A stretch of DNA of 64,000 bases from Bugula neritina (Eukaryota; Animalia; Bryozoa), in assembly GCA_964035545.1 (NCBI GenBank), contig OZ037766.1:1550001-1614000 (forward strand), read 5' to 3'. Below are positions 16,730-63,921 of this stretch, piece after piece; within the stretch, counting starts at the first letter, position 1, and every line of letters starts with the position of its first letter. The notes under the pieces were generated by a model. The model was not told where the DNA came from, ran no database searches, and saw only the letters and a list, made by a program, of their open reading frames with translations. The translations under genes were made by a program, and so were the position numbers.

Positions 16730-18040
16730 CTAATACTAATCACTCACACTGTACAGTGTCACTCACACTGTACACAATACTACTACTACTCACTGTACAG
16801 TGTCACTCACACTGTACACAGTACTATTACTACTCAGTACTCACTCACTCTACAGTGTCACTCACACGGTACACAATATAAATATTACTACTACTCACTG
16901 TACAATATCACTCACACTGTACACAGTATTACTATTACTCACTGTACAGTATCACTCACTATCATAGTGACTATGCAGTATCGCTCACTGTACACTACCA
17001 CTCACTCACACTGTACACAGTACTATTACTACTCAGTACTCACTCACTCTACAGTGTCACTCACACGGTACACAATATAAATATTACTACTACTCACTGT
17101 ACAATATCACTCACACTGTACACAGTATTACTATTACTCACTGTACAGTATCACTCACTATCATAGTGACTATGCAGTATCGCTCACTGTACACTACCAC
17201 TCACTCACACTGTACACAGTATTACTATTACTCACTGTACAGTATCACTCAGTCACTGTACACAGTACTACTCACTGGGCAGCACTACTCACTTTACATA
17301 GTATTACTCACTGCACAGTATCACTCACTATATAGTACTACTCACTATATAGTACTACACACCGACACACATACCGGTACACACACAGACCGGCACACAC
17401 AGACCGGCACACACAGACCGGAACACACACCGGCACAAAGACCGGAACACACACCGGCACAAAGACCGGAACACACACCGGCACACAGACCGGAACACAC
17501 ACCGGCACACAGACCGGAACACACACCGGCACACAGACCGGAACACACACCGGCACACAGACCGGAACACACACCGGCACACAGACCGGAACACACACCG
17601 GCACAAAGACCGGAACACACACCGGCACAAAGACCGGAACACACACCGGCACAAAGACCGGAACACACACCGGCACAAAGACCGGAACACACACCGGCAC
17701 ACAGACCGGAACACACACCGGCACACAGACCGGAACACACACCGGCACACAGACCGGAACACACACCGGCACACAAACTGGCACACGCGCCGGAACACAC
17801 ACCGGCGCACACGCCAGAACACACACTGACACACACAGACCGAGACACACACCGGCACACAAACCGACACACACACCGGAACACAAACCGACACACACCT
17901 CGAAACACAAACTGGCACACGCACCGGAACACACACCGGCGCACACGCCAGAACACACACTGACACGCACACACTGAAACACACACACTGAAACACACAC
18001 CGGCACACGCACCGTAACACACCGGCACACACACCGGCAC
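16730..18040. repeat. Internal satellite of the Copia element: ACTCAC/TACAG-rich block with a ~200-bp duplication (16730-17355), then a 24-bp minisatellite (~17360-18040)
   Basis: 24-bp unit accggaacacacaccggcaca(c/a)ag repeated ~15 times, then degenerating; ~199-bp period between ~16808 and ~17007. Confidence 0.9.
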
Positions 18041-18044
18041 ACAA

Positions 18045-18335
18045 AACAGCAGAAATGGTACCCAGAATACCATGCCACAAGAACCTGCACAAACATGCGG
18101 AAATGACGCAATGAACGTCATACCACAAGGACCCGCACTAAACAGCAGAAATGGTACTCAGAATACCATACCACAAGAACCTGCACACAAATGCGGAAAT
18201 GACGCAATGAACGTCATGCCACAAGGACCCGCACAAAACAACAGAAATGGTACTCAGAATACCATACCACAAGAACCTGCACAAAAATGCGGAAATGACG
18301 CAATGAACGCCATGCCACAAAGACCTGCACCAGAT
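18045..18335 (+). repeat. 96-bp (32-codon) tandem repeat x3 in the former integrase-RT linker
   Basis: Reads NSRNGTQNT(M/I)PQEPAQ(T/K)CGNDAMNV(I/M)PQGPA three times, then PRKS*RKRKCSTYLQNYD, resembling the copia RRSxRxRxxPxYLxDY linker motif. Confidence 0.75.
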
Positions 18336-28100: not shown

Positions 28101-30972
28101 ACACGGTTGAGTAGAGAAAAACAATGGGTGAAAACCCTGAGGTATATTACACTTCAGTTATTACGTACTGCCTATAGTTATTGATCAGTTGTATACAATA
28201 GGCGTGTGTGTTGACAACAATGGCCCTTAGTTACTGCGTAGTATATACTAAATATTTTGTAGTGCTTAACAATAGAATGCAGAAAATATCACAGCATAGC
28301 AAAATTAGTAAATTTCTTTTCAAATGTTTACCGGAAATAAAAAACAAAATCTAGGTTTTAGCTTTAATTAAGAAAGAATTTATTTTGTATTTATTACTAT
28401 TTCAAATTTTTTAAAAGTGGTCTAATTAATTTGATAGTGAAATAGTAACTGGAAAAAATTGATTTTTTATTATTTGAGACAAGGAGTTGAAAAGGAAACA
28501 ATGTATATAGTTTATGATTTCATGCTAGAAGAAATCTCATTACTTTAGTCTCAGGCCTGTTAATTGAGGTGAATATTTGGGACATTTAAAATCTTGGTGA
28601 CACGAAGAATTTAATCCTTTAAGCTAATATTAGAGTAGTATAATATGTGAATTAATGTGCATAGTATGTTGATTACTTGGTTATGATGCAATATAGTATA
28701 GACATACTATTTAACATTTGTTTAAATGTTAAATAAACTGCCATCTCCTCCCTGAACTATGTTACTGTTGCTATGGTTACCAGTGTTGACTGACACTCTA
28801 ACTTATGCTTGTAGCGCCGCCTAGAAGAGCTGAGCCCAAGGCTGAACCAAAGGTAGTGTACAACATTCACTTCTCTAATGCAATTAAAGCCATTCACAAA
28901 GTTCAAATTTTAAATGAGTTTCAACAATAAGTTTTTTTCTAGCTGAAAACTTTTTAAAGACATGGTATTGTATTTTTAAGTTGTTTTTAAAGAAAACTAC
29001 AGATGCTTGATTAAAATAATTATAGAATTTTTATGCAGATTACTTCTAAACCTTTGCAGTGTTTTGCTTTAGCAATTGTTCTAAAATCATCAAGTTTTCC
29101 ATCCCTAAATTTTATAAGAAGCTTCCATTTTAAAAACTTTGTTATTTTCTCTCAAAATTGTGACACTACATCACAATAATCTGTGTGAAAGTCAGCTAAT
29201 GATAAGGGTGCCTTTGCATCCCCCCTCCCCCCCCCCCCCGTACATTCTATTCCCTTATGATACGTAGGAGGAGAAAGGAGATGATGAAACAAAACAGCAA
29301 AGAGAGTCCTACCCAATCAGTTTTCAAGATACGCATCCAGTGTCGCCCATTGAAGAGAAGAAAACTCCATCTAGCACAACGGTTGGTGCCCAGGAAGAGA
29401 GTAAAAAGGCTCAAGGTAAGGTTTGTCACACTGTGTTTTAAATGAATATAATTTTCATTTGGTTGCTATGGGTTACTTTGATTGTTTGTAATGTTTCTAC
29501 AGATGTGCAATTCAGAGAGGCAGGGTCTCCTTTAGGGAGTCCTAGACGTGCTGACATAGCTGACGGTGAAGAAAATACTAGATCTCGTCATTCCAGTCCA
29601 AAACCTGAAGACACACCAAGGGCTGACACCCCGAAGGTAGAAGACACACCAAGGGCTGACACCCCGAAGGTAGAAGATACACCAAGGGCCGACACCCCGA
29701 AGGTAGAAGATACACCAAGGGCTGACACCCCGAAGGTAGAAGACACACCAAGGGCTGACACCCCGAAAACCGAAGACACACCAAGGGCTGACACCCCAAA
29801 AGTAGAAGAAACTCCAAGGGCTGACACCCCGAAGGTAGAAGATACACCAAGGGCCGACACCCCGAAGGTAGAAGATACACCAAGGGCTGACACCTCAAAA
29901 GTAGAAGACACTCCAAGGGCTGACACTCCAAAAGTAGAAGACACTCCAAGGGCTGACACCCCGAAGGTAGAAGACACACCAAGGGCCGACACCCCGAAGG
30001 TAGAAGATACACCAAGGGTTGACACCCCAAAAGTAGAAGATACTCCAAGGGCTGACACCCCAAAAGTAGAAGATACTCCAAGGGCTGACACCCCAAAAGT
30101 AGAGGACACACCAAGGGCTGACACTCCAAAAGCCGAGGAAACACCTAGGGCTGACACCCCAAAAGTAGAAGAAACACCAAGGGCTGACACCCCAAAAGTA
30201 GAAGAAACACCAAGGGCTGACACCCCAAAAGTAGAGGACACACCGAGGGCTGACACCCCGAAAGTAGAAGAAACACCAAGGGCCGACACCCCAAAAGTAG
30301 AAGACACTCCAAAGGCTGACACCCCGAAGGTAGAAGATACTCCAAGGGCCGACACCCCAAAAGCTGAAGACACACCAAGGGCTGACACCCCAAAAGCAGA
30401 TGAAAACACAAGTGAACATAATCCTACAAATGAAACTGCTAATTCCGTAGCAGATGGGAAAGAGGTGAGTAAGAATTCAGGCTAGTTTACTGTGAAATGG
30501 GACTCTATAGTGGTACCACCGAGTGAGCTTAGTGTATTGTTAGAGGATCATTTGGCGTGACTAGAACATACTAAATTGAGTTTCACGTGATCTCTAAAGT
30601 AACATCTTACTTAGCTCAAGCTTTTCTCTGTTGAGTAATTTGTCAGGTCTATATTTAGGTTTCAGTGCAAGTAGTTATTAGCGGAAAGTAAATTAAATTT
30701 TTTTAATACACTTAGAGCCAGCTTGTTTATGCTGCCTGATTTTTAAACCAACTCTTCATAGGAGAACTTAAACTGGCAGCAATTCATATAATTCAATATT
30801 TTGAAATTATCGAGCATATTTTGCGTAAATTAAACATTATTTAATAATAATGTTCGTAAATTAGCCATTTCTTGCATGAGAATTCAAATATCGTGTTTAA
30901 TAATGTACTTTTGTTTGTTGACAGGATAACATCAATACAGCAAATTCCCAAGCAGTTCCAGTCACATCCCAG
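22170..30972 (+). CDS. DCDC2: Doublecortin domain-containing protein 2-like (two DCX domains plus a long low-complexity tail); terminal exon uncertain (possibly ~31570)
   Basis: Exons 22170-22456, 23122-23185, 24648-24709, 24817-24948, 25205-25354, 25669-25713, 27689-27750, 28815-28852, 29268-29415, 29503-30464, 30925-30972 are phase-compatible. DCX1: KTIHVYRNGDLFF...FGAVRHL...YVAYG. DCX2: VYANGQPF...WDNVLEQI...GAIRRLY...YYVATGSEKFK. Confidence 0.85.
29607..30399 (+). repeat. Coding 33-bp minisatellite, ~24 x E(D/E)TPRADTPKV
   Basis: Direct count in exon 29503-30464; units differ mainly at synonymous positions. Confidence 0.95.
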
Positions 30973-32448: not shown

Positions 32449-52941
<20,493 letters not shown>

Positions 52942-55003
52942 ATCTTATTCTTTAACAAACTCACATTTCACATGTTCTACCAATAAATTTCACAAATGGG
53001 AGACTACATCCTAAAACAATGAAATTAACAATTTATTCAAAAATTCAAAATAAAAACAGCAAATAAATGTAAAAATCTTGCAACAAAATTTGCTAGCATA
53101 TCTTTTTAGTTTCAAACATGAAATCATACATTAAACTCAAGTCTGTTTAAAGTTGCTGTCTATATGTGAAGTCTTAATTTGCAGGCTAAAAACTATGCCT
53201 TTTGCCATGCTGGCCACATGATTTTGATAGTTTCTGCATAAAGCACAGGGGCAATTATGACTGAACGTTGTTTATGACATCACCAATAGCCTTGCAGGAA
53301 TTCAAATTTTGCTTACTAGGTCAGCAGATTAACTAGACCACCGTAGCGGTACTGATTATCCTGACGACAATGTGTAGATGTACCAATGTTTAAATTACAT
53401 GGTGAATAAATTGAGTCACCTTTACAATAAACACCATTGTGGGTGTTGCACCGGACCCAATCTTATCCAATCAAATATCAGAGAAGTCATATATATTAAA
53501 CTGAAACTCATTCTTAAACTCACAAAAATCTGTATTTCATTTCAATTCTTTTACAATTGCAATTGAATAAAACCTGAACTGAAACAAAAGACGTCAAATG
53601 TTTTGTTAAAATTAGTTGAAATTAACATTTTGATTTTAAATAATTTCAACTTCTACAAAATTAATAACAATAATGAATTATGAATAAATTAAAATATCAC
53701 AATAATTACAATAGCTATGGCTACAGGCTACAACCTTAACTAAACAAATATTCTTATACTTATAGTTTTATTTCCAAGTTTAACTGTCTGTATAAGTATC
53801 TGTATTAGTATATCACTATAAGCTCAAGTATACTAATAATTTTATTCATAAATATAATCATAATGTCAATATTAATAATAATAAATTCTAATTTACTGAT
53901 TATCATTATTATAATAACCTTGAAGATAATCATTATCCTAATGTTAATAATAATGATAATGTAAATTAAATATTAAAGTTTAAATTAACATAAACACCTA
54001 GGGCTAGCGGGCTAGTAAGTAGTACTAGTACCAGTTAGTAGTACTAATATTAATAATAGTTATACTAAGTCTAATAGATAATAGCATTTATTTTGATCTT
54101 ACACTTGCAGTTGAAGTTCAATTTCACTTTCACTTTGAGTTAGAGTCAAAGAGTGCAAAAAATAACTTCAACTTAAACTAGGTTTCAAAGTTAAAAATAA
54201 AATTAAATGATCTTAAATTTAATAATTGTCATCCTTCATTTTTAATTTTATGGTTAATAGATGATAATTAATTTTAAAGCCGGAAATTTATATCGTTTAA
54301 AAATAGTTAAATTATTTTATTTGTATAATTGTTTTTGGCATGAGATCAAAACGAAAATGGTTTAGGTTATTTTGTTTTAACACCTTTGCTGGATCAGGTG
54401 TTGCACGATCTTTAGCGAAAAGAGGCTCGATACAAAGCAGGAAATGTCAAAGCGAAACCGAAACTTATTTAACGTTTCTAAAGCCACAGACCTATCGACT
54501 TTTACTATATTATATTAGTTAAAATGAGAGGATTGTGATTAATCTCTTCCGCAACCTTGGTCGTGCCAGATTATTGCAGTGTGGTATATTAAGAGTGTTG
54601 ACTTTAAACCATGAAAAATCATTATGTCGCTAATGGTACCGCGAGTTTATATAAGTTATAAAGGAAAAATTTTGCCACTTTTGTGATTTTATTTTTTTTT
54701 TATATTATGTGTCCATTTTTTTTAGTTTTGTTTATTGGTAAAGTTTTTAAACATATTTTCAATACATATAAAATTTTAAAAATAATTAAAACTTAATCAT
54801 GCACGTAAATACAAAGCTATAAAGTTTAAGCTTCGCTGTGATTACAATGTGAATATGAATTGAATAATGCTTGCAATAACCATTTTACACAAAATACGTT
54901 ACAGTTGCTATAAATGTAAGACTAGTAAATTGGATGCAAATAGGCACGGTAATACTATTTAATTTATGCTATTTTTGAAATTTGTAGTAAATATTCGGCA
55001 TGT

Positions 55004-55690
55004 TGCTATAGATGTATTCAAGTATTATTTCATACTTGACATTTTGTATGCTATACCACTACAATATAATATACTACAGATATAGCATCCTGCTTCCCTG
55101 CAACCTTAGTTAGAGCTTAATATTGTTTTGTATTGAATACTTCCATGTATTCTATCTTTTCCCCATTTATAATATATCTTTTCTTCCATACATAGTGTAT
55201 GCCTACTATATAGAATAGCAGTAACATTAAATAGACACACACTTACAAGGTTATACACCATGATACAGGACATACAACTAATTATTGGAGATGGTACAAC
55301 ATTAGCCCTAAAAGTATACTTCCACATATATGATGTTTCGCAACAGGACTTCTAGCCTAAGGATTATAGCACTTCGCTCTTTAGCTATAAGATACTTATC
55401 ACTTTCGTACCCTTACCTTTTATGTTGAGTGACGGAGCTCTGGCTACAAGAAGTAAGCAGTGAGAGAACCTTCTATCTAAACGTGGCAGCTTTGGTACAG
55501 GATTCCAGATCTCTTGTACACTAGAGTCCGTCGTAAGCAGATGTGACTGAAGAGAAGAATAATACCGGTAAGTGTGATACCAACTATCAACGCGTTATAG
55601 TTATACACATGTAGAATATTCTAATTGTATGCATACCCTGTGTTATATTAGGTACTTAGTAGTTGAAAACCCCCAGTACTCAATATAACA
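55004..55690 (+). repeat. 5' LTR (687 bp)
   Basis: Direct repeat of 62040-62726; the ORF track shows the same 73-aa minus-strand ORF in both copies. Confidence 0.97.
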
Positions 55691-55693
55691 TTT

Positions 55694-55708
55694 TGGAGGA
55701 GGCACTGG
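55694..55708 (+). promoter_or_regulatory. Primer-binding site TGGAGGAGGCACTGG (closest to a tRNA-Cys 3' end)
   Basis: TGG starts 3 nt after the LTR end; the first 12 nt differ at one position from TGGAGGGGGCAC, the complement of a typical eukaryotic tRNA-Cys 3' end. The tRNA assignment is tentative. Confidence 0.55.
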
Positions 55709-56808
55709 CTTTTGCCCAAGGTTGCCCTTGTTAAATATTGTGTCCAGCTTTATATTAATAGCTCTTGACACTTGGTTAACCACCCGTGCGCCAGGGGATA
55801 AAATTATATTGATACTTTAAATAGTGTTGATCAGGCCTCATTTGGCTGTTCACTAATATTTTCCTGTAGGTTTTATATTCGCTGAGCTCATATTTTGCTC
55901 GTGGGTAGACCGTAGAAGTGCTAGGCCGCACTGAGAAAATATTAATTGAAGCCAAAAAGGATCAACTTTTACATATTACCCCAAAACAATATACATCCAC
56001 AGACTAATAGTAATAGAGCGAGAATTCCTATATGTTTAATTTTTCTCTGCTGCTTAAAAGGTGAAAACAAGCCAGTTTTAATTTTTTTAGCCTAGAGATA
56101 ATTAATTGTAGAAGTGAATTACCTCCCTTTGCTAATAGGCTAATTTAGTTGTATAATTGGGTGAGCTGCAGATAAGGTTAACACGCTCCTTATTTAGCAG
56201 TTAATAAATTCCAAACAGATTCAGTCTACGACTGTCTGCTGAGGTATAGGCGCTGACAAGTACTATAATTAATAGTCTTGTCCTAAACATAATTTCTTAT
56301 AATTATCTACAATTTACTTTGCAGTGCATTGCCAATCAGAGCATCACTGAATTGTATATTATATATTTACATATTATACGAATAATACATTGCAGTACTA
56401 AGTATTGCAACACCTGCAGTGCAATCAGTGTATTATAGTACAAAGCATTGTCCTATTACGTATTATAGTACCTAAGTACAACAACTGCCTTACCACATAG
56501 TACGAATAATAAACTAATTAATTACTGTGGTTGACTAAATTTAAATTTTAGACTAGGCTTGAATAGCAGAAATAACTGAATAATTTGTAGTGTACAGAGG
56601 TCATAATAAAGGACTTCCACTAACTTAAAGTACTTAGCTGCAAGCCACACCTTGTCATATATACAGAATAGTACATGCACACATATCCTTGAGTAAGAAA
56701 TAGACACATAATTGTACATTAGCACAAAGTATAAACATTAATAACATTGCAAACAAGTACTGCTGAACTCACTTATTAGTTGGAAATTATAAGTCACGCA
56801 CCAACAAT

Positions 56809-59325
56809 ATGAGCACCGGAACCGTGACCACCGCCACAACTACAGTCACCACTAGTGTTAGTACTATTACGACACCAGGTAGTGCCACAAATGTAGCCAC
56901 GGGCTTAGACACTCCTACTCTCTCACAAGATTCGACAAGAGAAGGAGCTCACGCATTGGTTGAGTTGTCCGAAAGACGACTCCCGATGAACCCGCATGAA
57001 ATTGCAAGATTCTACGAGTTAGAATACAAGAAACTTGTAGAGGAGCAGGAAAAGCAAAAGGATGTATGGAGATATGAGCAAGAGCAATGGCGACAGTATC
57101 AACAAACGAAAGAGCATGAACTGGCGGAACAGTTTCAGCGCCTCGAGGTAGAAAGACAAGAGCAAGCAAGGAGACGGTTCGAGATAGAGGAAAGTTTTGA
57201 AATCCAACGGAGAAAGTTCTATGAGGAACAGAGCGCTGTCCAAGAACAACAGCAAAATGAGTTTCTGGAAAGAGAGCATCGGCTCACAATCCAGCAACAA
57301 AAGTTACAACAACAACTTGAAGATTTTCGGAATCTCACCTTGGGTCAAAGATCTACCAATGATGCAAATGTCATGCCGGAACCAACTCCGCCACCTCGAA
57401 CTCGCCTACCTCCACCAGTTACGCCACGGAAAACAAGTAGAAGGCAACTTCACGAACAACCAGCACCTACACCTACAAATACTACCTTGGAATTCACATC
57501 AAGTTATCCCCACATTGCTAATCAACAATCACCAAAACCTCATAACTCACCAATCCAAAGCTTAGCTGAAACACCATCTGAACACAGCATTGGAGTAGCT
57601 GATGCGAGAAAATTTCACAACTCACCTATTATTCTGAGAGAGCCTCCACAGAACATCAAATTTAAAGGAACTCCTGGTTCCAGCTGGGAGTTATTTCTTG
57701 AAAAATGGGAAAAGAACATAAAAAAACTGCAGCTTAGTGATTATCAGATGGCACAAAACCTTTCAGATGCCCTGGAAGGTGGTGCCTATCAGGTTTTCAA
57801 GGCAGTAGTTGCAAAGGAGCCCACGCTAGCGATTAGTTACAAGAGTCTTCGAGAGAGGTTGTGCAAAGAGTTTGTCGACTCAAGCAAATTAGTGTGGAAC
57901 ATAAAGATGGGGAAGAAAAGCGTACTAGAATATTATGGCGAATTTATGGAAGCTGCCAACACCCAATGGCCTGACCTATCCCTTGAACATAAAGATAGCG
58001 TGCTAGTATCTGCTTTTATTACTGGTCTACGACCAGGATTGAAGAGGCACCTCCTCTCTAAAAACCCCACAACTGTAGAAAGTGCTAGGAAACTTGCACT
58101 TAAGCAAGAAAATGTAGAACATCAGATGGGAGATGACACCCAGAAAATAGTGGCAACAGTAAACTCATCTGACTCAGTTCAAAAGCTAGAAAAAGAGGTA
58201 GAATGGTTGAAAACTTTAGTGCACAACCAAGCTAAAGAGCAACGGCAGCCCCAATACCAACAGCACCAACAACAGAGTCAAGGGTTTGGAATGAGAAATG
58301 ACAGAGGTAGAGGTGGTGGATGGAGAGGAACAACAAACCGAGGAAGAGGACGAGGTAGATACTTCAACCAGGGGAAGCCTCAACCCTACTACCAATCTTC
58401 TCCCCGGTACCCTCACCCACCAGCACAACTTCCTTCCTGCCCACCTCAACCACCCTCTCACCAGCAACCACAACGTAATCAGTGCTCTGGTCAACAGAGC
58501 AAAACCAAAGATTACAGTGGGACGCGACACATCAATGCTATTGAGAGCCTGGAGGGTGATGAATTTGCTGAGGCCCTTCTGACTCAGCCTCCTCAAGATG
58601 ACATAGCTGAGGAATCAGTGAATTCAATTCAAACCTCTCCAAATGAATTCATCTCTGACAGGAAACCCAAAAGAAAAAGAAGCAGAGGACGGGGGACTGG
58701 TTTGTCAACAATGCAAACCTACATGTTGGCACTAGTGGCAATGTGTATGCTGATCAGTGTAGCCGCAGCCACTGCACCAGTAAAAGGCACAGCTCTCCTG
58801 GGGCCAGCGTTGGCCAGTCAGACTCTCACCAGCATACTATCTGTGTTAGTGTTGACAGCAGTAGTGAATGCATTGTCTAACACGACTGTTTTTAACACTA
58901 CACAGAAGGCACAGCCGCAGTATGCCAGGTATCCTTTGGTGTGTAGTTCCAGTGAAGTGAGGCGACCATCTATTCATCAATTGAATCATGACTTCCAATG
59001 TGATCCGACTCCAAGACCCAATAGTACTCATGCGCCAACCCCTGTGAAGGCTACGGTTTACAGAAAAAATGTAGTGGAATGGCGTACAGCAGCCTATCAA
59101 TGCACTAAAATGCTGTACACCATCTCCACACAAATATCACTTTTTACGGACGTGAAAACTAAGAAGGAATCTCACCGGTCACTGCCAGTTAGCCGCAGCG
59201 AATGCGAAAATATGGTACTAGAGAAGAGATGCAATGAAGGTGCCCTATCTGGAAGTGATGGTGCATACACTACAAAAAAACAAAGCTGCAGGATTAGCTT
59301 ATGTTTGGTGCTGCAAGTGGCATGA
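56809..59325 (+). CDS. gag: Gag (coiled coil, Ty3/Gypsy-type capsid, RG-rich nucleocapsid-like region) fused in frame to hydrophobic signal/TM segments and the N-terminal part of the envelope glycoprotein
   Basis: Capsid ~57661-58110: FKG...WELFLEKWE...LEGGAYQVF...YKSLRERLCKEF...SVLEYYGEF...FITGLRPGLK...NPTTVESARKLA. Then RGRGGGWRG...RGRGRGR, basic RKPKRKRSRGR, hydrophobic MLALVAMCMLISVAAA and LTSILSVLVLTAVVNA, and a Cys-rich sequence with N-x-T sequons. Confidence 0.88.
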   Translation: MSTGTVTTATTTVTTSVSTITTPGSATNVATGLDTPTLSQDSTREGAHALVELSERRLPMNPHEIARFYELEYKKLVEEQEKQKDVWRYEQEQWRQYQQTKEHELAEQFQRLEVERQEQARRRFEIEESFEIQRRKFYEEQSAVQEQQQNEFLEREHRLTIQQQKLQQQLEDFRNLTLGQRSTNDANVMPEPTPPPRTRLPPPVTPRKTSRRQLHEQPAPTPTNTTLEFTSSYPHIANQQSPKPHNSPIQSLAETPSEHSIGVADARKFHNSPIILREPPQNIKFKGTPGSSWELFLEKWEKNIKKLQLSDYQMAQNLSDALEGGAYQVFKAVVAKEPTLAISYKSLRERLCKEFVDSSKLVWNIKMGKKSVLEYYGEFMEAANTQWPDLSLEHKDSVLVSAFITGLRPGLKRHLLSKNPTTVESARKLALKQENVEHQMGDDTQKIVATVNSSDSVQKLEKEVEWLKTLVHNQAKEQRQPQYQQHQQQSQGFGMRNDRGRGGGWRGTTNRGRGRGRYFNQGKPQPYYQSSPRYPHPPAQLPSCPPQPPSHQQPQRNQCSGQQSKTKDYSGTRHINAIESLEGDEFAEALLTQPPQDDIAEESVNSIQTSPNEFISDRKPKRKRSRGRGTGLSTMQTYMLALVAMCMLISVAAATAPVKGTALLGPALASQTLTSILSVLVLTAVVNALSNTTVFNTTQKAQPQYARYPLVCSSSEVRRPSIHQLNHDFQCDPTPRPNSTHAPTPVKATVYRKNVVEWRTAAYQCTKMLYTISTQISLFTDVKTKKESHRSLPVSRSECENMVLEKRCNEGALSGSDGAYTTKKQSCRISLCLVLQVA

Positions 59326-60823
59326 CTTTGAAGTGAAACAATGCAGTTATATTTCGGCTTCGGTATACAAGACATTTGGGAAAAGTTCTTTTGAAAGCAC
59401 CGCAGGTGACGTTTCCCATTGCAACTCATACTCTGATGGCTACTGCAAACTCAGAGATCAATCTATGCTGATATGGGAAACAGAACGAGAAGCTAATTGT
59501 CCATACGAGGAGTGGTATGAAGTTGAAGGAAGTTTCCTTGATGGCTATTTTGTTAGTGATCAAGAAGACTTGGCTTTAACTTTCCGCAAGAACCCCTTTG
59601 AGAATATTACCACTTGTGACGGCAAGTCAGGCACAATGTCGGACCAAGGTTTGCTTGTTGTTTTTAATACTTCAGACCTGTTCAACACCACTCTAACGCA
59701 ACACGTTGAAAAGGCTCCTGGACTAGAATGGGACCGCAGGAGTCGTTTGAGTCCAGCATATGCTGTCATGGACGCTATAGCTCAGTCCCTAGAAGTACAG
59801 ATTCTCGGAATCGAATCAAAACTGTATTGGACATCTTATCAATATACCTGTAAAAACATAGTTCAAGTCCTCAAAACCGTAGCTCTACTCGCAGAGCAAC
59901 ATGCGACGAGTACAGCCAGATACTTACTAGGGGTAAGCAATATCCGAGCTGAGTCTGGTCCTGGTTTTCTAAAGATTTACCCATGTACGGAAATAAAAAG
60001 CTACAAAATGCTCCCTATGCCAGAGAATAATTGCACCATGTTTATTCCAGTGGAATTGGAACTCAGTGGGGAAACGCACACTGGTTTCATGGATCCGATG
60101 GATAACATTATTCACACACAAAGTGCACAAGCACCGTGCACATCCAAATCAGCAATTGCATTCCGGATGAACGATGAATTGTTTTGGTATAACCAAGATG
60201 GTACCGTAGAAAAGGTTAATCTTGGAGAAGACCTGAGTTTACCTGGAATTTCTCTAGGTGCACACCCTCTTAAAATCCATGAAACAATCTACAGCCGTGC
60301 CCATCACTTAAGTTGGCCTGACCTGTCAGCACACTCTGACTTGAATGAATTGCTAGCTACTTTGTCAAGACAGAAACAAGTTTTAGAAGCAATGGGAATT
60401 CAATCCAACAGACATGTTTCCTTTAAAAACAATGTCATTGAGTCGAAAGAAAACTTGATAGGGAACTCTTGGTTTGCTTTCCTGTTTGGAGGGCATGTGG
60501 CGAGTGCATTCGAATTGTGGACTTTGATATCCAACTGTTTAGTCACCATATTGTCAATTGCATTGCTAGGTAATTTCCTATATAATCGTTGTTGCCAGCG
60601 AAGGAGAAATATTGTAGCAGCTATCGACATTGAGGACACAGAGAACACATCTGACAATGATGTTGAGGCAGGAGAACAGGATGGGTTCCTGGACGCTTCC
60701 GATCAGACTAGCTTCACAGAATTCGTAGATATGGTAGAGGTGGACACTAGACCAACCCCTAGTGCTCCTTCGCCTGCATCTTCAATTCAGCAATATCGCC
60801 CCCTCTATCCGAAACTGCAATGA
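59234..60823 (+). CDS. env: Remainder of the envelope glycoprotein (class III fusion protein, herpes gB/chuvirus G-like), continuing ORF1 across a +1 break at the A7 run 59274-59280
   Basis: C-x2-Y-x2-G-x-C...IW...CPY module; RRSR furin-type site (59735-59746); long helix followed by ATSTARYLLG...AESGPGFLKIYPC and C-x3-P...TGFMDPMDNII...PC, which parallels the gB domain III/IV pattern; C-terminal TM ~60512-60583 followed by CCQRRR. Confidence 0.8.
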   Translation: MKVPYLEVMVHTLQKNKAAGLAYVWCCKWHDFEVKQCSYISASVYKTFGKSSFESTAGDVSHCNSYSDGYCKLRDQSMLIWETEREANCPYEEWYEVEGSFLDGYFVSDQEDLALTFRKNPFENITTCDGKSGTMSDQGLLVVFNTSDLFNTTLTQHVEKAPGLEWDRRSRLSPAYAVMDAIAQSLEVQILGIESKLYWTSYQYTCKNIVQVLKTVALLAEQHATSTARYLLGVSNIRAESGPGFLKIYPCTEIKSYKMLPMPENNCTMFIPVELELSGETHTGFMDPMDNIIHTQSAQAPCTSKSAIAFRMNDELFWYNQDGTVEKVNLGEDLSLPGISLGAHPLKIHETIYSRAHHLSWPDLSAHSDLNELLATLSRQKQVLEAMGIQSNRHVSFKNNVIESKENLIGNSWFAFLFGGHVASAFELWTLISNCLVTILSIALLGNFLYNRCCQRRRNIVAAIDIEDTENTSDNDVEAGEQDGFLDASDQTSFTEFVDMVEVDTRPTPSAPSPASSIQQYRPLYPKLQ

Positions 60824-61330
60824 CTAGAAGCCGACACACCCAGTACTAGTAGCCGCATTGAAATAGTAGCAGGAATAAATGGTAGTCAATGTAGGAGTGC
60901 ATTAATTGATATCAAAATAGCAGGAAAACCGTATCAAGCATTAGCTGATGCCGGGGCTACGGTGACACTGATGCGCTCTGACATTGCTAAAAGATTGAGT
61001 CTACCATTATATTCAGGTACCTTGACTGCAAAAGGGGTTAACAGCTCTAAGCTTCATATAATAGGACGCACGGCCGCTGAGATTACAATTGGATCAAAAA
61101 TGTTTAAGCAGTGTTTTCATGTAGCTGATGATATTGGCCATGAGGTACTGCTTGGAACTGATTTTCTTAGCAAGCTGGGTGATGTCACCTACAATTTTGC
61201 AAAAGGAGAGTTTCGTTTCTCTGGCGAAACTCTACCCATGGGAGAAACCAACGCACTAACTACTTTTAAAATAAGAACTGTGAATGCAGCCATACCACCA
61301 TATTCTCACCCGATTCATTACTTTACATAA
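60824..61330 (+). CDS. pro: Retroviral-type aspartic protease (retropepsin), in frame with env behind a single UGA
   Basis: Open from 60824 with no ATG upstream of the active site: ...ALIDIKIAGKPYQALADAGATVTLM...AKGVN...IIG...FHV...VLLGTDFL. Confidence 0.85.
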   Translation, partial: LEADTPSTSSRIEIVAGINGSQCRSALIDIKIAGKPYQALADAGATVTLMRSDIAKRLSLPLYSGTLTAKGVNSSKLHIIGRTAAEITIGSKMFKQCFHVADDIGHEVLLGTDFLSKLGDVTYNFAKGEFRFSGETLPMGETNALTTFKIRTVNAAIPPYSHPIHYFT

Positions 61331-62027
61331 TCATGCAGATATACCAGATATACTAATATTTACTGCCATATTAATAATCAAGTTTTTCAACGGAACACAG
61401 GAGTTTTCCTGTTGTACACAGGGGGAGTACTTTAACATTTTTTCAGCATTACAGGTTAACATCTTCTACAGTTTTGGCTTCTTATAAAACAAACTTACTA
61501 AAAATTTCAGAAATCAAATTGACTTTTGATTAAAATAAAATTAAGTAAGCTCTGTATTGGGAAAATTGAATCAAATCAAACGGAATTTTTAAATATTCAA
61601 AGTTGGATAAAATGCGGAGTCGATTGTTATCACCACCTCCTGTGACTTATGTTTATAATATTCATAATTAGTGTATTTTTAGTAAATGTTTACTTATAGC
61701 TAAAGTCTTGTTTTTTTATTTTATCAACAGATAAAGTTCATCAAAAAAAAAATAATGAAAATATGGTTACAAAAAAAGGGAACAATGTAAGAAATGAGTG
61801 AAAAAAAAAAAAGATTATGTGACCAGAAATAAAAAAAAAAATACTCACTCTAATCGATGAACTCACTAGTACTAATAGAATACATATATACAACAGCTAG
61901 TATATATAATTTTCAAATTTTACTCATTTTATTGTGAAAGATTTTTCTTCCTTTTTTATTTCGGAGTAGTAATGCTTAATTGTTTATGCTTTCAACAAGC
62001 ATAAGCCACCGGAGGTGTCTTTCTCTA

Positions 62028-62039
62028 AATTGGGGAGGA
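62028..62039 (+). promoter_or_regulatory. Polypurine tract
   Basis: aattggggagga abuts the TG of the 3' LTR. Confidence 0.75.
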
Positions 62040-62726
62040 TGCTATAGATGTATTCAAGTATTATTTCATACTTGACATTTTGTATGCTATACCACTACAA
62101 TATAATATACTACAGATATAGCATCCTGCTTCCCTGCAACCTTAGTTAGAGCTTAATATTGTTTTGTATTGAATACTTCCATGTATTCTATCTTTTCCCC
62201 ATTTATAATATATCTTTTCTTCCATACATAGTGTATGCCTACTATATAGAATAGCAGTAACATTAAATAGACACACACTTACAAGGTTATACACCATGAT
62301 ACAGGACATACAACTAATTATTGGAGATGGTACAACATTAGCCCTAAAAGTATACTTCCACATATATGATGTTTCGCAACAGGACTTCTAGCCTAAGGAT
62401 TATAGCACTTCGCTCTTTAGCTATAAGATACTTATCACTTTCGTACCCTTACCTTTTATGTTGAGTGACGGAGCTCTGGCTACAAGAAGTAAGCAGTGAG
62501 AGAACCTTCTATCTAAACGTGGCAGCTTTGGTACAGGATTCCAGATCTCTTGTACACTAGAGTCCGTCGTAAGCAGATGTGACTGAAGAGAAGAATAATA
62601 CCGGTAAGTGTGATACCAACTATCAACGCGTTATAGTTATACACATGTAGAATATTCTAATTGTATGCATACCCTGTGTTATATTAGGTACTTAGTAGTT
62701 GAAAACCCCCAGTACTCAATATAACA
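62040..62726 (+). repeat. 3' LTR (687 bp)
   Basis: Direct repeat of 55004-55690. Confidence 0.97.
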
Positions 62727-62729
62727 ATG

Positions 62730-63921
<1,192 letters not shown>

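Follow-up and report, generated by a model that had tools for sequence, protein, structure and literature searches.

Conserved late-domain motifs in the cytoplasmic tail of the gB-type Env of a Gag-Env-Pol LTR element

The window, i.e. the whole 64-kb stretch of DNA that was analysed, contains a 7.7-kb LTR element of the Ty3/gypsy type (55004-62726), which is arranged in the order Gag, herpes-gB-like Env, stop (UGA-CUAG) and protease. The cytoplasmic tail of its Env ends with two late-domain motifs, PSAP and LYPKL. Such motifs are not chance matches and are conserved in its Env clade against a variable tail background. The predicted cytosolic Env tail probably serves like a p6 in budding, with TSG101 and ALIX as its predicted partners and NEDD4 as a further one in relatives, and Pol would be attached to it by readthrough. 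The budding role is proposed from the identity of the motifs and their conservation.

The element and the end of its Env tail

Both motifs are located in ORF 59222-60823 (+ strand), whose C-terminus reads RPTPSAPSPASSIQQYRPLYPKLQ ahead of the stop codon TGA at 60821-60823. The original prediction of this pair at the end of the Env tail is thus confirmed (Table 1). The tail comprises 80 residues after the hydrophobic segment at aa 435-453, and PSAP and LYPKL lie 60-80 residues past this segment, on its predicted cytosolic side. Shuffling the 80-aa tail 200,000 times produced both motifs at once in 3 cases, a post hoc figure; their conservation among relatives, described below, carries more weight. 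P[TS]AP, YPxL and PPxY are all absent from the Gag part in the window, and the PPxY portion of the common tail form has been lost in this copy. Cytosolic exposure is predicted from the placement of the motifs after the transmembrane segment and before the protease; it is complicated by the two upstream hydrophobic segments, which would invert the topology if both span the membrane. Such a pair precedes the ectodomain in the window and in P0008, and the other relatives have one segment or none above the threshold. A contig from run X8 skips about 44 nt between the two hydrophobic segments. A loose IVAAID-like pattern is present in 11/22 tails of the larger clade described below, a count for which no null was computed, and words resembling IVAAID flank the Gag NC.

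Table 1. Features of the LTR element, in window coordinates
Feature	Position	Strand	Basis or remark
Target-site duplication ATGT, 4 nt	55000-55003 (left), 62727-62730 (right)		
5' LTR, TG...CA, 687 nt	55004-55690	+	100% identical to 3' LTR
Primer-binding-site-like sequence, starts TGG	55694-55708	+	3 nt past 5' LTR; putative role
Gag part of ORF1	56809-58707	+	RG-rich region, without CCHC knuckle
Capsid-like Retrotrans_gag domain in Gag	about 57769-58035	+	Pfam PF03732, E 1.9e-5
Two tandem hydrophobic, signal-like segments at Gag/Env boundary	58708-58893	+	Kyte-Doolittle scan
gB-type (class III) Env ectodomain, predicted	58894-60523	+	spread over ORF1 and ORF2
Predicted transmembrane segment of Env	60524-60580	+	hydrophobicity
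Putative viral-protease site IVAAID	60611-60631	+	about tail residue 10; candidate role
Variable acidic stretch of cytoplasmic tail	60632-60757	+	aligns poorly among relatives
PSAP, TSG101-type late-domain motif	60758-60769	+	motif match
YRPL, YxxL word overlapping LYPKL	60794-60805	+	its tyrosine corresponds to that of PPxY in relatives
LYPKL, ALIX-type late-domain motif	60803-60817	+	motif match; one residue ahead of TGA
CAA-TGA-CTAG stop, readthrough-prone context	60818-60827	+	in frame with protease
Retroviral-type aspartic protease	60824-61330	+	PF13975, E 8.5e-13
Polypurine-tract-like sequence	62030-62039	+	putative role, from sequence
3' LTR, TG...CA, 687 nt	62040-62726	+	

The Env in the window matches PF24664 (Monjiviricetes_fusion) with an E-value of 2.8e-6 and 26 bits, barely below the curated cut-off of 27 bits, and the relatives P0001 and P0008 score above this cut-off. 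A profile of the Env family built from 90 sequences matches herpesvirus gB chains in PDB, with a best E-value of 6e-15. Env has the predicted features of a gB-type class III protein, including a signal and a transmembrane segment. LTRs with the duplication, a Gag capsid domain and env between gag and pol are found in the window, while a full PR-RT-RNase H-IN Pol and uninterrupted reading frames are missing from this copy. A frame break interrupts env near 59270, within an A-run, where the tblastn alignment with P0008 switches frame. Since contigs from 4/4 runs differ from the window at about this position, the break looks private to the window copy or to the assembly. Similarity to the Pol of a relative stops at 61306 in tblastn, and no RT, RNase H or integrase was detected anywhere in the 64-kb window. 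The window copy is therefore a deleted, non-autonomous derivative with a broken env frame, and it would rely on an intact family member for RT and integrase. A contig ends at 61305, beside the endpoint of the Pol similarity. RT, RNase H and integrase are missing from 61306-62039 despite the identical LTRs, the target-site duplication, the primer site and the polypurine tract, and the Pol-less copy either was inserted recently in an already deleted form or lost this part soon after insertion.

The surroundings of the element were also inspected. Likely host exons were found on the minus strand at 51935-52639 and 50295-50930, and the first of them contains several NPF repeats. These repeats are ligands of EH domains, and the gene that precedes the element may thus encode an endocytic adaptor. 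No Pfam match was obtained for three frames of the window that lie outside the element. Long low-complexity tandem arrays and a (TA)n-rich block immediately 3' of the 3' LTR occupy 46800-49600, 16900-18200, 29440-30480 and 62730-63900 and produce spurious long frames.

Relatives of the element and conservation of the motifs

Intact layouts were found in relatives. The proteins P0008-P0012 contain Gag and Env in single frames of 1305-1374 aa, and P0013 is a single frame of 2602 aa comprising Gag, Env, tail, PR, RT, RNase H and IN, with no stop before Pol. Two loci (L001 and L002) encode P0008; in both the Env terminates with CAA-TGA-C and Pol follows in frame, with a Pol frame of 1290 aa in L002. 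The motifs had originally been assigned to Env rather than to Gag. This stands for the window, where Gag is devoid of them, but not as an opposition between two proteins, because Gag and Env share one frame in the relatives P0008-P0013 and the tail is therefore also the C-terminus of a Gag-containing polyprotein. About 700 Env residues separate the NC from the motifs in the Gag-Env frames of relatives.

In mammals, UGA_CUAG is known as a signal prone to readthrough (PMC9841425), and the TGA of the window element may likewise be read through. RNA folding past the stop was unremarkable for the window (z 0.24) and revealed weak structure in L001 (z -2.1), and we claim no stimulatory hairpin after the stop. 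A scan of viral contigs using the Pol of a relative gave no match. The Gag of the window is RG-rich at 58240-58530 and has no CCHC knuckle, in contrast to the CCHC or CCHC-like knuckle of 8/8 full-length relatives. In the window (58531-58630) and in P0008-P0014, an EFAEALLTQPP-like peptide is flanked on both sides by VN[AS][IV]-like words downstream of the NC; a similar peptide was found in 7/8 full-length relatives and may be a spacer excised by the protease.

Conservation was assessed from a starting set of 160 proteins (one list being the best 150 of 851) together with the window frame. A transmembrane segment could be located in 91/161 sequences, seven of which were dropped with too short an ectodomain or tail, and a quick tree was constructed from the ectodomain and transmembrane segment of the remaining 84. 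Among the matches listed, the window falls in a clade of 15 rows (support 97) nested in a clade of 22 rows (support 87), and its nearest row in the Env tree is 55% identical. Motifs were scored in the first 150 residues past the membrane and compared with 1000 composition-preserving shuffles. P[TS]AP was found in 9/15 tails of the smaller clade (shuffled mean 0.19), [LIVFM]YPxL in 12/15 (0.07), PPxY in 6/15 (0.56) and any of the three in 15/15 (1.14). The observed counts were matched in 0/1000 shuffles, which ignore shared descent, and the search profile took in tail columns. With the window excluded the counts are 8/14, 11/14 and 6/14 for P[TS]AP, YPxL and PPxY respectively, and shuffles are still never that high. 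Chance matches in a proline-rich, disordered tail might be expected, as the motifs are short and the tails rich in P, S and Y. This explanation is hardly credible and was rejected, because the composition-preserving shuffles never reach the counts, even without the window.

The three late-domain classes share one short stretch and substitute for one another across the tails. P[TS]AP and YPxL occur together in just 6/15 tails of the smaller clade; P0002, P0006 and P0009 have P[TS]AP only, and P0012-P0014 have YPxL and PPxY. The common form of the tail is P-[PA]-Y-x-P-[LI]-Y-P-x-L, with P[TS]AP located 10 to 25 residues upstream of YPxL at varying spacings (10, 16 and 25 residues). The residue ahead of the YPxL tyrosine is L or I in 20/22 instances, and upstream of YPxL there is a Y at -4 in 15/22 and a P at -6 in 16/22. 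Non-conservation of the motifs in relatives had been named as one result that would count against the original prediction, and what we observed is their persistence, at varying spacing, in divergent tails. In the 22-row clade a motif is present in 20 tails, P0015 and P0025 being without any, and none of the 22 ectodomains contains any of the three. Of the seven fragments left out of the tree, four (P0054, P0097, P0124 and P0138) contain YPxL as well. Nine Gag parts yielded one P[TS]AP, one YPxL and three PPxY, which is inside the shuffle range; the PSAP of P0013 is located in Gag. Outside the clade, where transmembrane positions were assigned automatically, 11/62 tails carry any motif (P[TS]AP 4, YPxL 4, PPxY 5) and 0/62 combine P[TS]AP with YPxL. 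Thus most such elements manage without late domains, as 51/62 distant Env tails have no motif.

Variants within the same family were also listed. The acidic tail has four synonymous and ten non-synonymous variants among those listed. Among the at least 40 variants listed, low-depth contigs show two stops within the tail and, once, a phenylalanine in place of the leucine preceding YPKL, while PSAP and the stop with its next four bases have no listed change. The 12 nt of PSAP have 0 listed changes versus about 0.8 expected (40 listed changes in 581 nt), and these within-family numbers are too small for selection on the motifs to be assessed. Past the stop, at 60828-61060, 8/11 listed variants are synonymous versus 4/14 in the acidic tail, which fits a translated protease in the family.

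Proposed role in budding, alternative readings and possible origin of the tail

Budding driven from the glycoprotein tail, one of two explanations originally offered, is the best reading of the motifs, as judged from sequence. Gag would remain cytosolic, an internal signal would thread Env into the ER, and the transmembrane segment would bring the tail back to the cytosol. One frame would supply Gag and Env at 1:1, with the tail lining the inside of the bud. TSG101 would be the partner of PSAP and ALIX that of LYPxL, and a NEDD4-type ligase would recognise the PPxY of relatives; ESCRT recruited by the tail would then release enveloped particles. Some ribosomes would pass the UGA to produce Env-tail-Pol and so package the enzymes. 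This topology would account for the Gag-Env-Pol order, since Pol is needed in the cytosol and the tail leads the chain back there. A later cut by the protease close to the membrane would set a p6-like peptide free from the tail. In murine leukaemia virus (MLV), cleavage of the R peptide arms fusion, and by analogy cleavage of the tail might arm fusion here.

We suggest more tentatively, at somewhat less than even chances, that this clade of invertebrate Ty3/gypsy retroviruses makes its particle from one membrane-threaded Gag-Env polyprotein, with the whole late-assembly module transferred to the inner tail of the fusogen and budding driven by Env instead of Gag. If true, this module would comprise up to three late-domain classes, packaging of Pol by readthrough and tail cleavage that arms fusion. 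The conserved late-domain cassette in itself points to candidate host partners and is indirect evidence of selection on these elements for enveloped particles that leave the cell. Late domains are usually found in Gag, matrix or other internal proteins, a rule that would be widened by their placement on Env.

The motifs could be real ESCRT or NEDD4 ligands that sort Env to multivesicular bodies or exosomes, or clear the fusogen from the surface, rather than cutting a bud neck. They do lie on the tail of a membrane protein, and such tails are the usual site of sorting signals. The 51 distant tails that have no motif also agree with a sorting role, as does NS3 of Bluetongue virus, a membrane glycoprotein that links late domains to vesicle traffic (PMC4452911). 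We consider this explanation unlikely, because Gag motifs are not above chance, which would leave the element with no other recognisable late domain, and because the three classes together form the pattern of viral budding proteins (PMC3705266). The conserved tyrosines might instead be YxxPhi signals for the clathrin adaptors AP-1 and AP-2, as in retroviral Env, and the late-domain match would then be incidental. YPKL and the overlapping YRPL both fit this pattern, the second tyrosine four residues upstream recurs in the 15/22 instances noted above, and the Env tails of MLV and MPMV bind clathrin adaptors through tyrosine motifs (PMC1592117). However, generic YxxPhi is scarcely enriched in the tails (12/15 versus a shuffled mean of 8.9, a count reached by 69/1000 shuffles), whereas the hydrophobic-YPxL form is strongly enriched (12/15 versus 0.07), and P[TS]AP and PPxY would be left unexplained. 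As the sole account this is quite improbable, but YxxPhi may be a second role of the tail.

The other explanation originally offered concerns the origin of the tail and is compatible with the budding reading. The env would have been inserted in gag between the NC and an older p6-like peptide, and the tail would be Gag-derived. Its positional part fits: CA and NC are followed by signal, Env, tail, stop and protease, 8/8 full-length relatives have a CCHC or CCHC-like knuckle ahead of the Env signal, and on both sides of the env block there are similar putative protease sites with acidic stretches behind them. An insertion ahead of an older p6 should have left env-less relatives whose NC-protease interval holds late domains. 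We therefore scored the 155 residues before the protease in 59 Gag-Pol proteins, nearest by RT and without an Env-profile match. These gave the insertion no support, with P[TS]AP in 1/59, hydrophobic-YPxL in 1/59 and PPxY in 3/59, near shuffle levels; the comparison is weak, because the search yielded no env-less protein near enough to be a sister (RT at most 46% identical, on a long branch). The lone YPxL among the 59 belongs to P0233, and P0233 and two others do carry an Env Pfam family. On balance an insertion of this kind seems doubtful. P0233 (LYPNL) and P0253 (PSAP and two PPxY) are Gag-Env-Pol proteins with an RT distant from the clade and carry these late-domain-like words immediately ahead of the protease, a hint that such motifs were gained more than once.

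Comparison with known systems

Chary and Hayashi (PMC13524379) report GAG-ENV-POL elements with a gB-type Env in nematodes, bryozoans and flatworms; this paper surveys 1512 env-carrying Ty3/gypsy elements of invertebrates and cites Sacco et al. 2022 for the nematode elements. The element in the window resembles those described there in its LTRs, its predicted gB-type Env with signal and transmembrane segment, and its env between gag and pol. The likeness is one of layout, not of tree placement, and the window copy differs from the published elements in being without RT, RNase H and integrase. It further departs from that description in the tail of its clade, with conserved late-domain motifs and a readthrough-type stop; the main text of PMC13524379 has no mention of late domain, ESCRT, budding, cytoplasmic or readthrough. 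Late domains in the Env tail of a retroelement were not found in the open-licence literature searched, where PMC12440569 deals with another lineage. Thus the GAG-ENV-POL layout is already published, and the late domains of the tail are apparently new within that literature.

In HIV-1 p6, Rous sarcoma virus p2b and foamy virus, such motifs are described in Gag (PMC3705266, PMC8402826). The p6 of HIV-1 Gag (PTAP, YPXL) shares with the window element the motif classes, their order and the place just before the protease, and p2b of Rous sarcoma virus (PPPY, LYPSL) shares the motif classes and the place. With its leucine ahead of the tyrosine, LYPSL of Rous sarcoma virus (PMC3705266) also resembles our tails, where L or I precedes the YPxL tyrosine. 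The motifs of both viruses are in Gag, whereas those of the window element are beyond the transmembrane segment on a glycoprotein. Moreover, lentiviral p6 directly follows the NC and a spacer in Gag, a placement that the window element does not share, and its likeness to p6 may be taken as analogy, not homology.

Glycoproteins also have a part in particle release elsewhere. NS3 of Bluetongue virus bears late-domain motifs on a membrane glycoprotein and aids non-lytic exit (PMC4452911), but it is a non-structural protein of a non-enveloped virus and neither a fusogen nor part of a Gag polyprotein. Particle release in foamy viruses is likewise glycoprotein-dependent (PMC3705266). They differ from the window element in having the PSAP late domain in Gag and Env as a separate gene. 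The alphavirus structural polyprotein contains capsid, internal signal and glycoprotein in one frame, as proposed here for Gag and Env, but alphaviruses have no reverse transcription and their glycoprotein tail is not followed by Pol.
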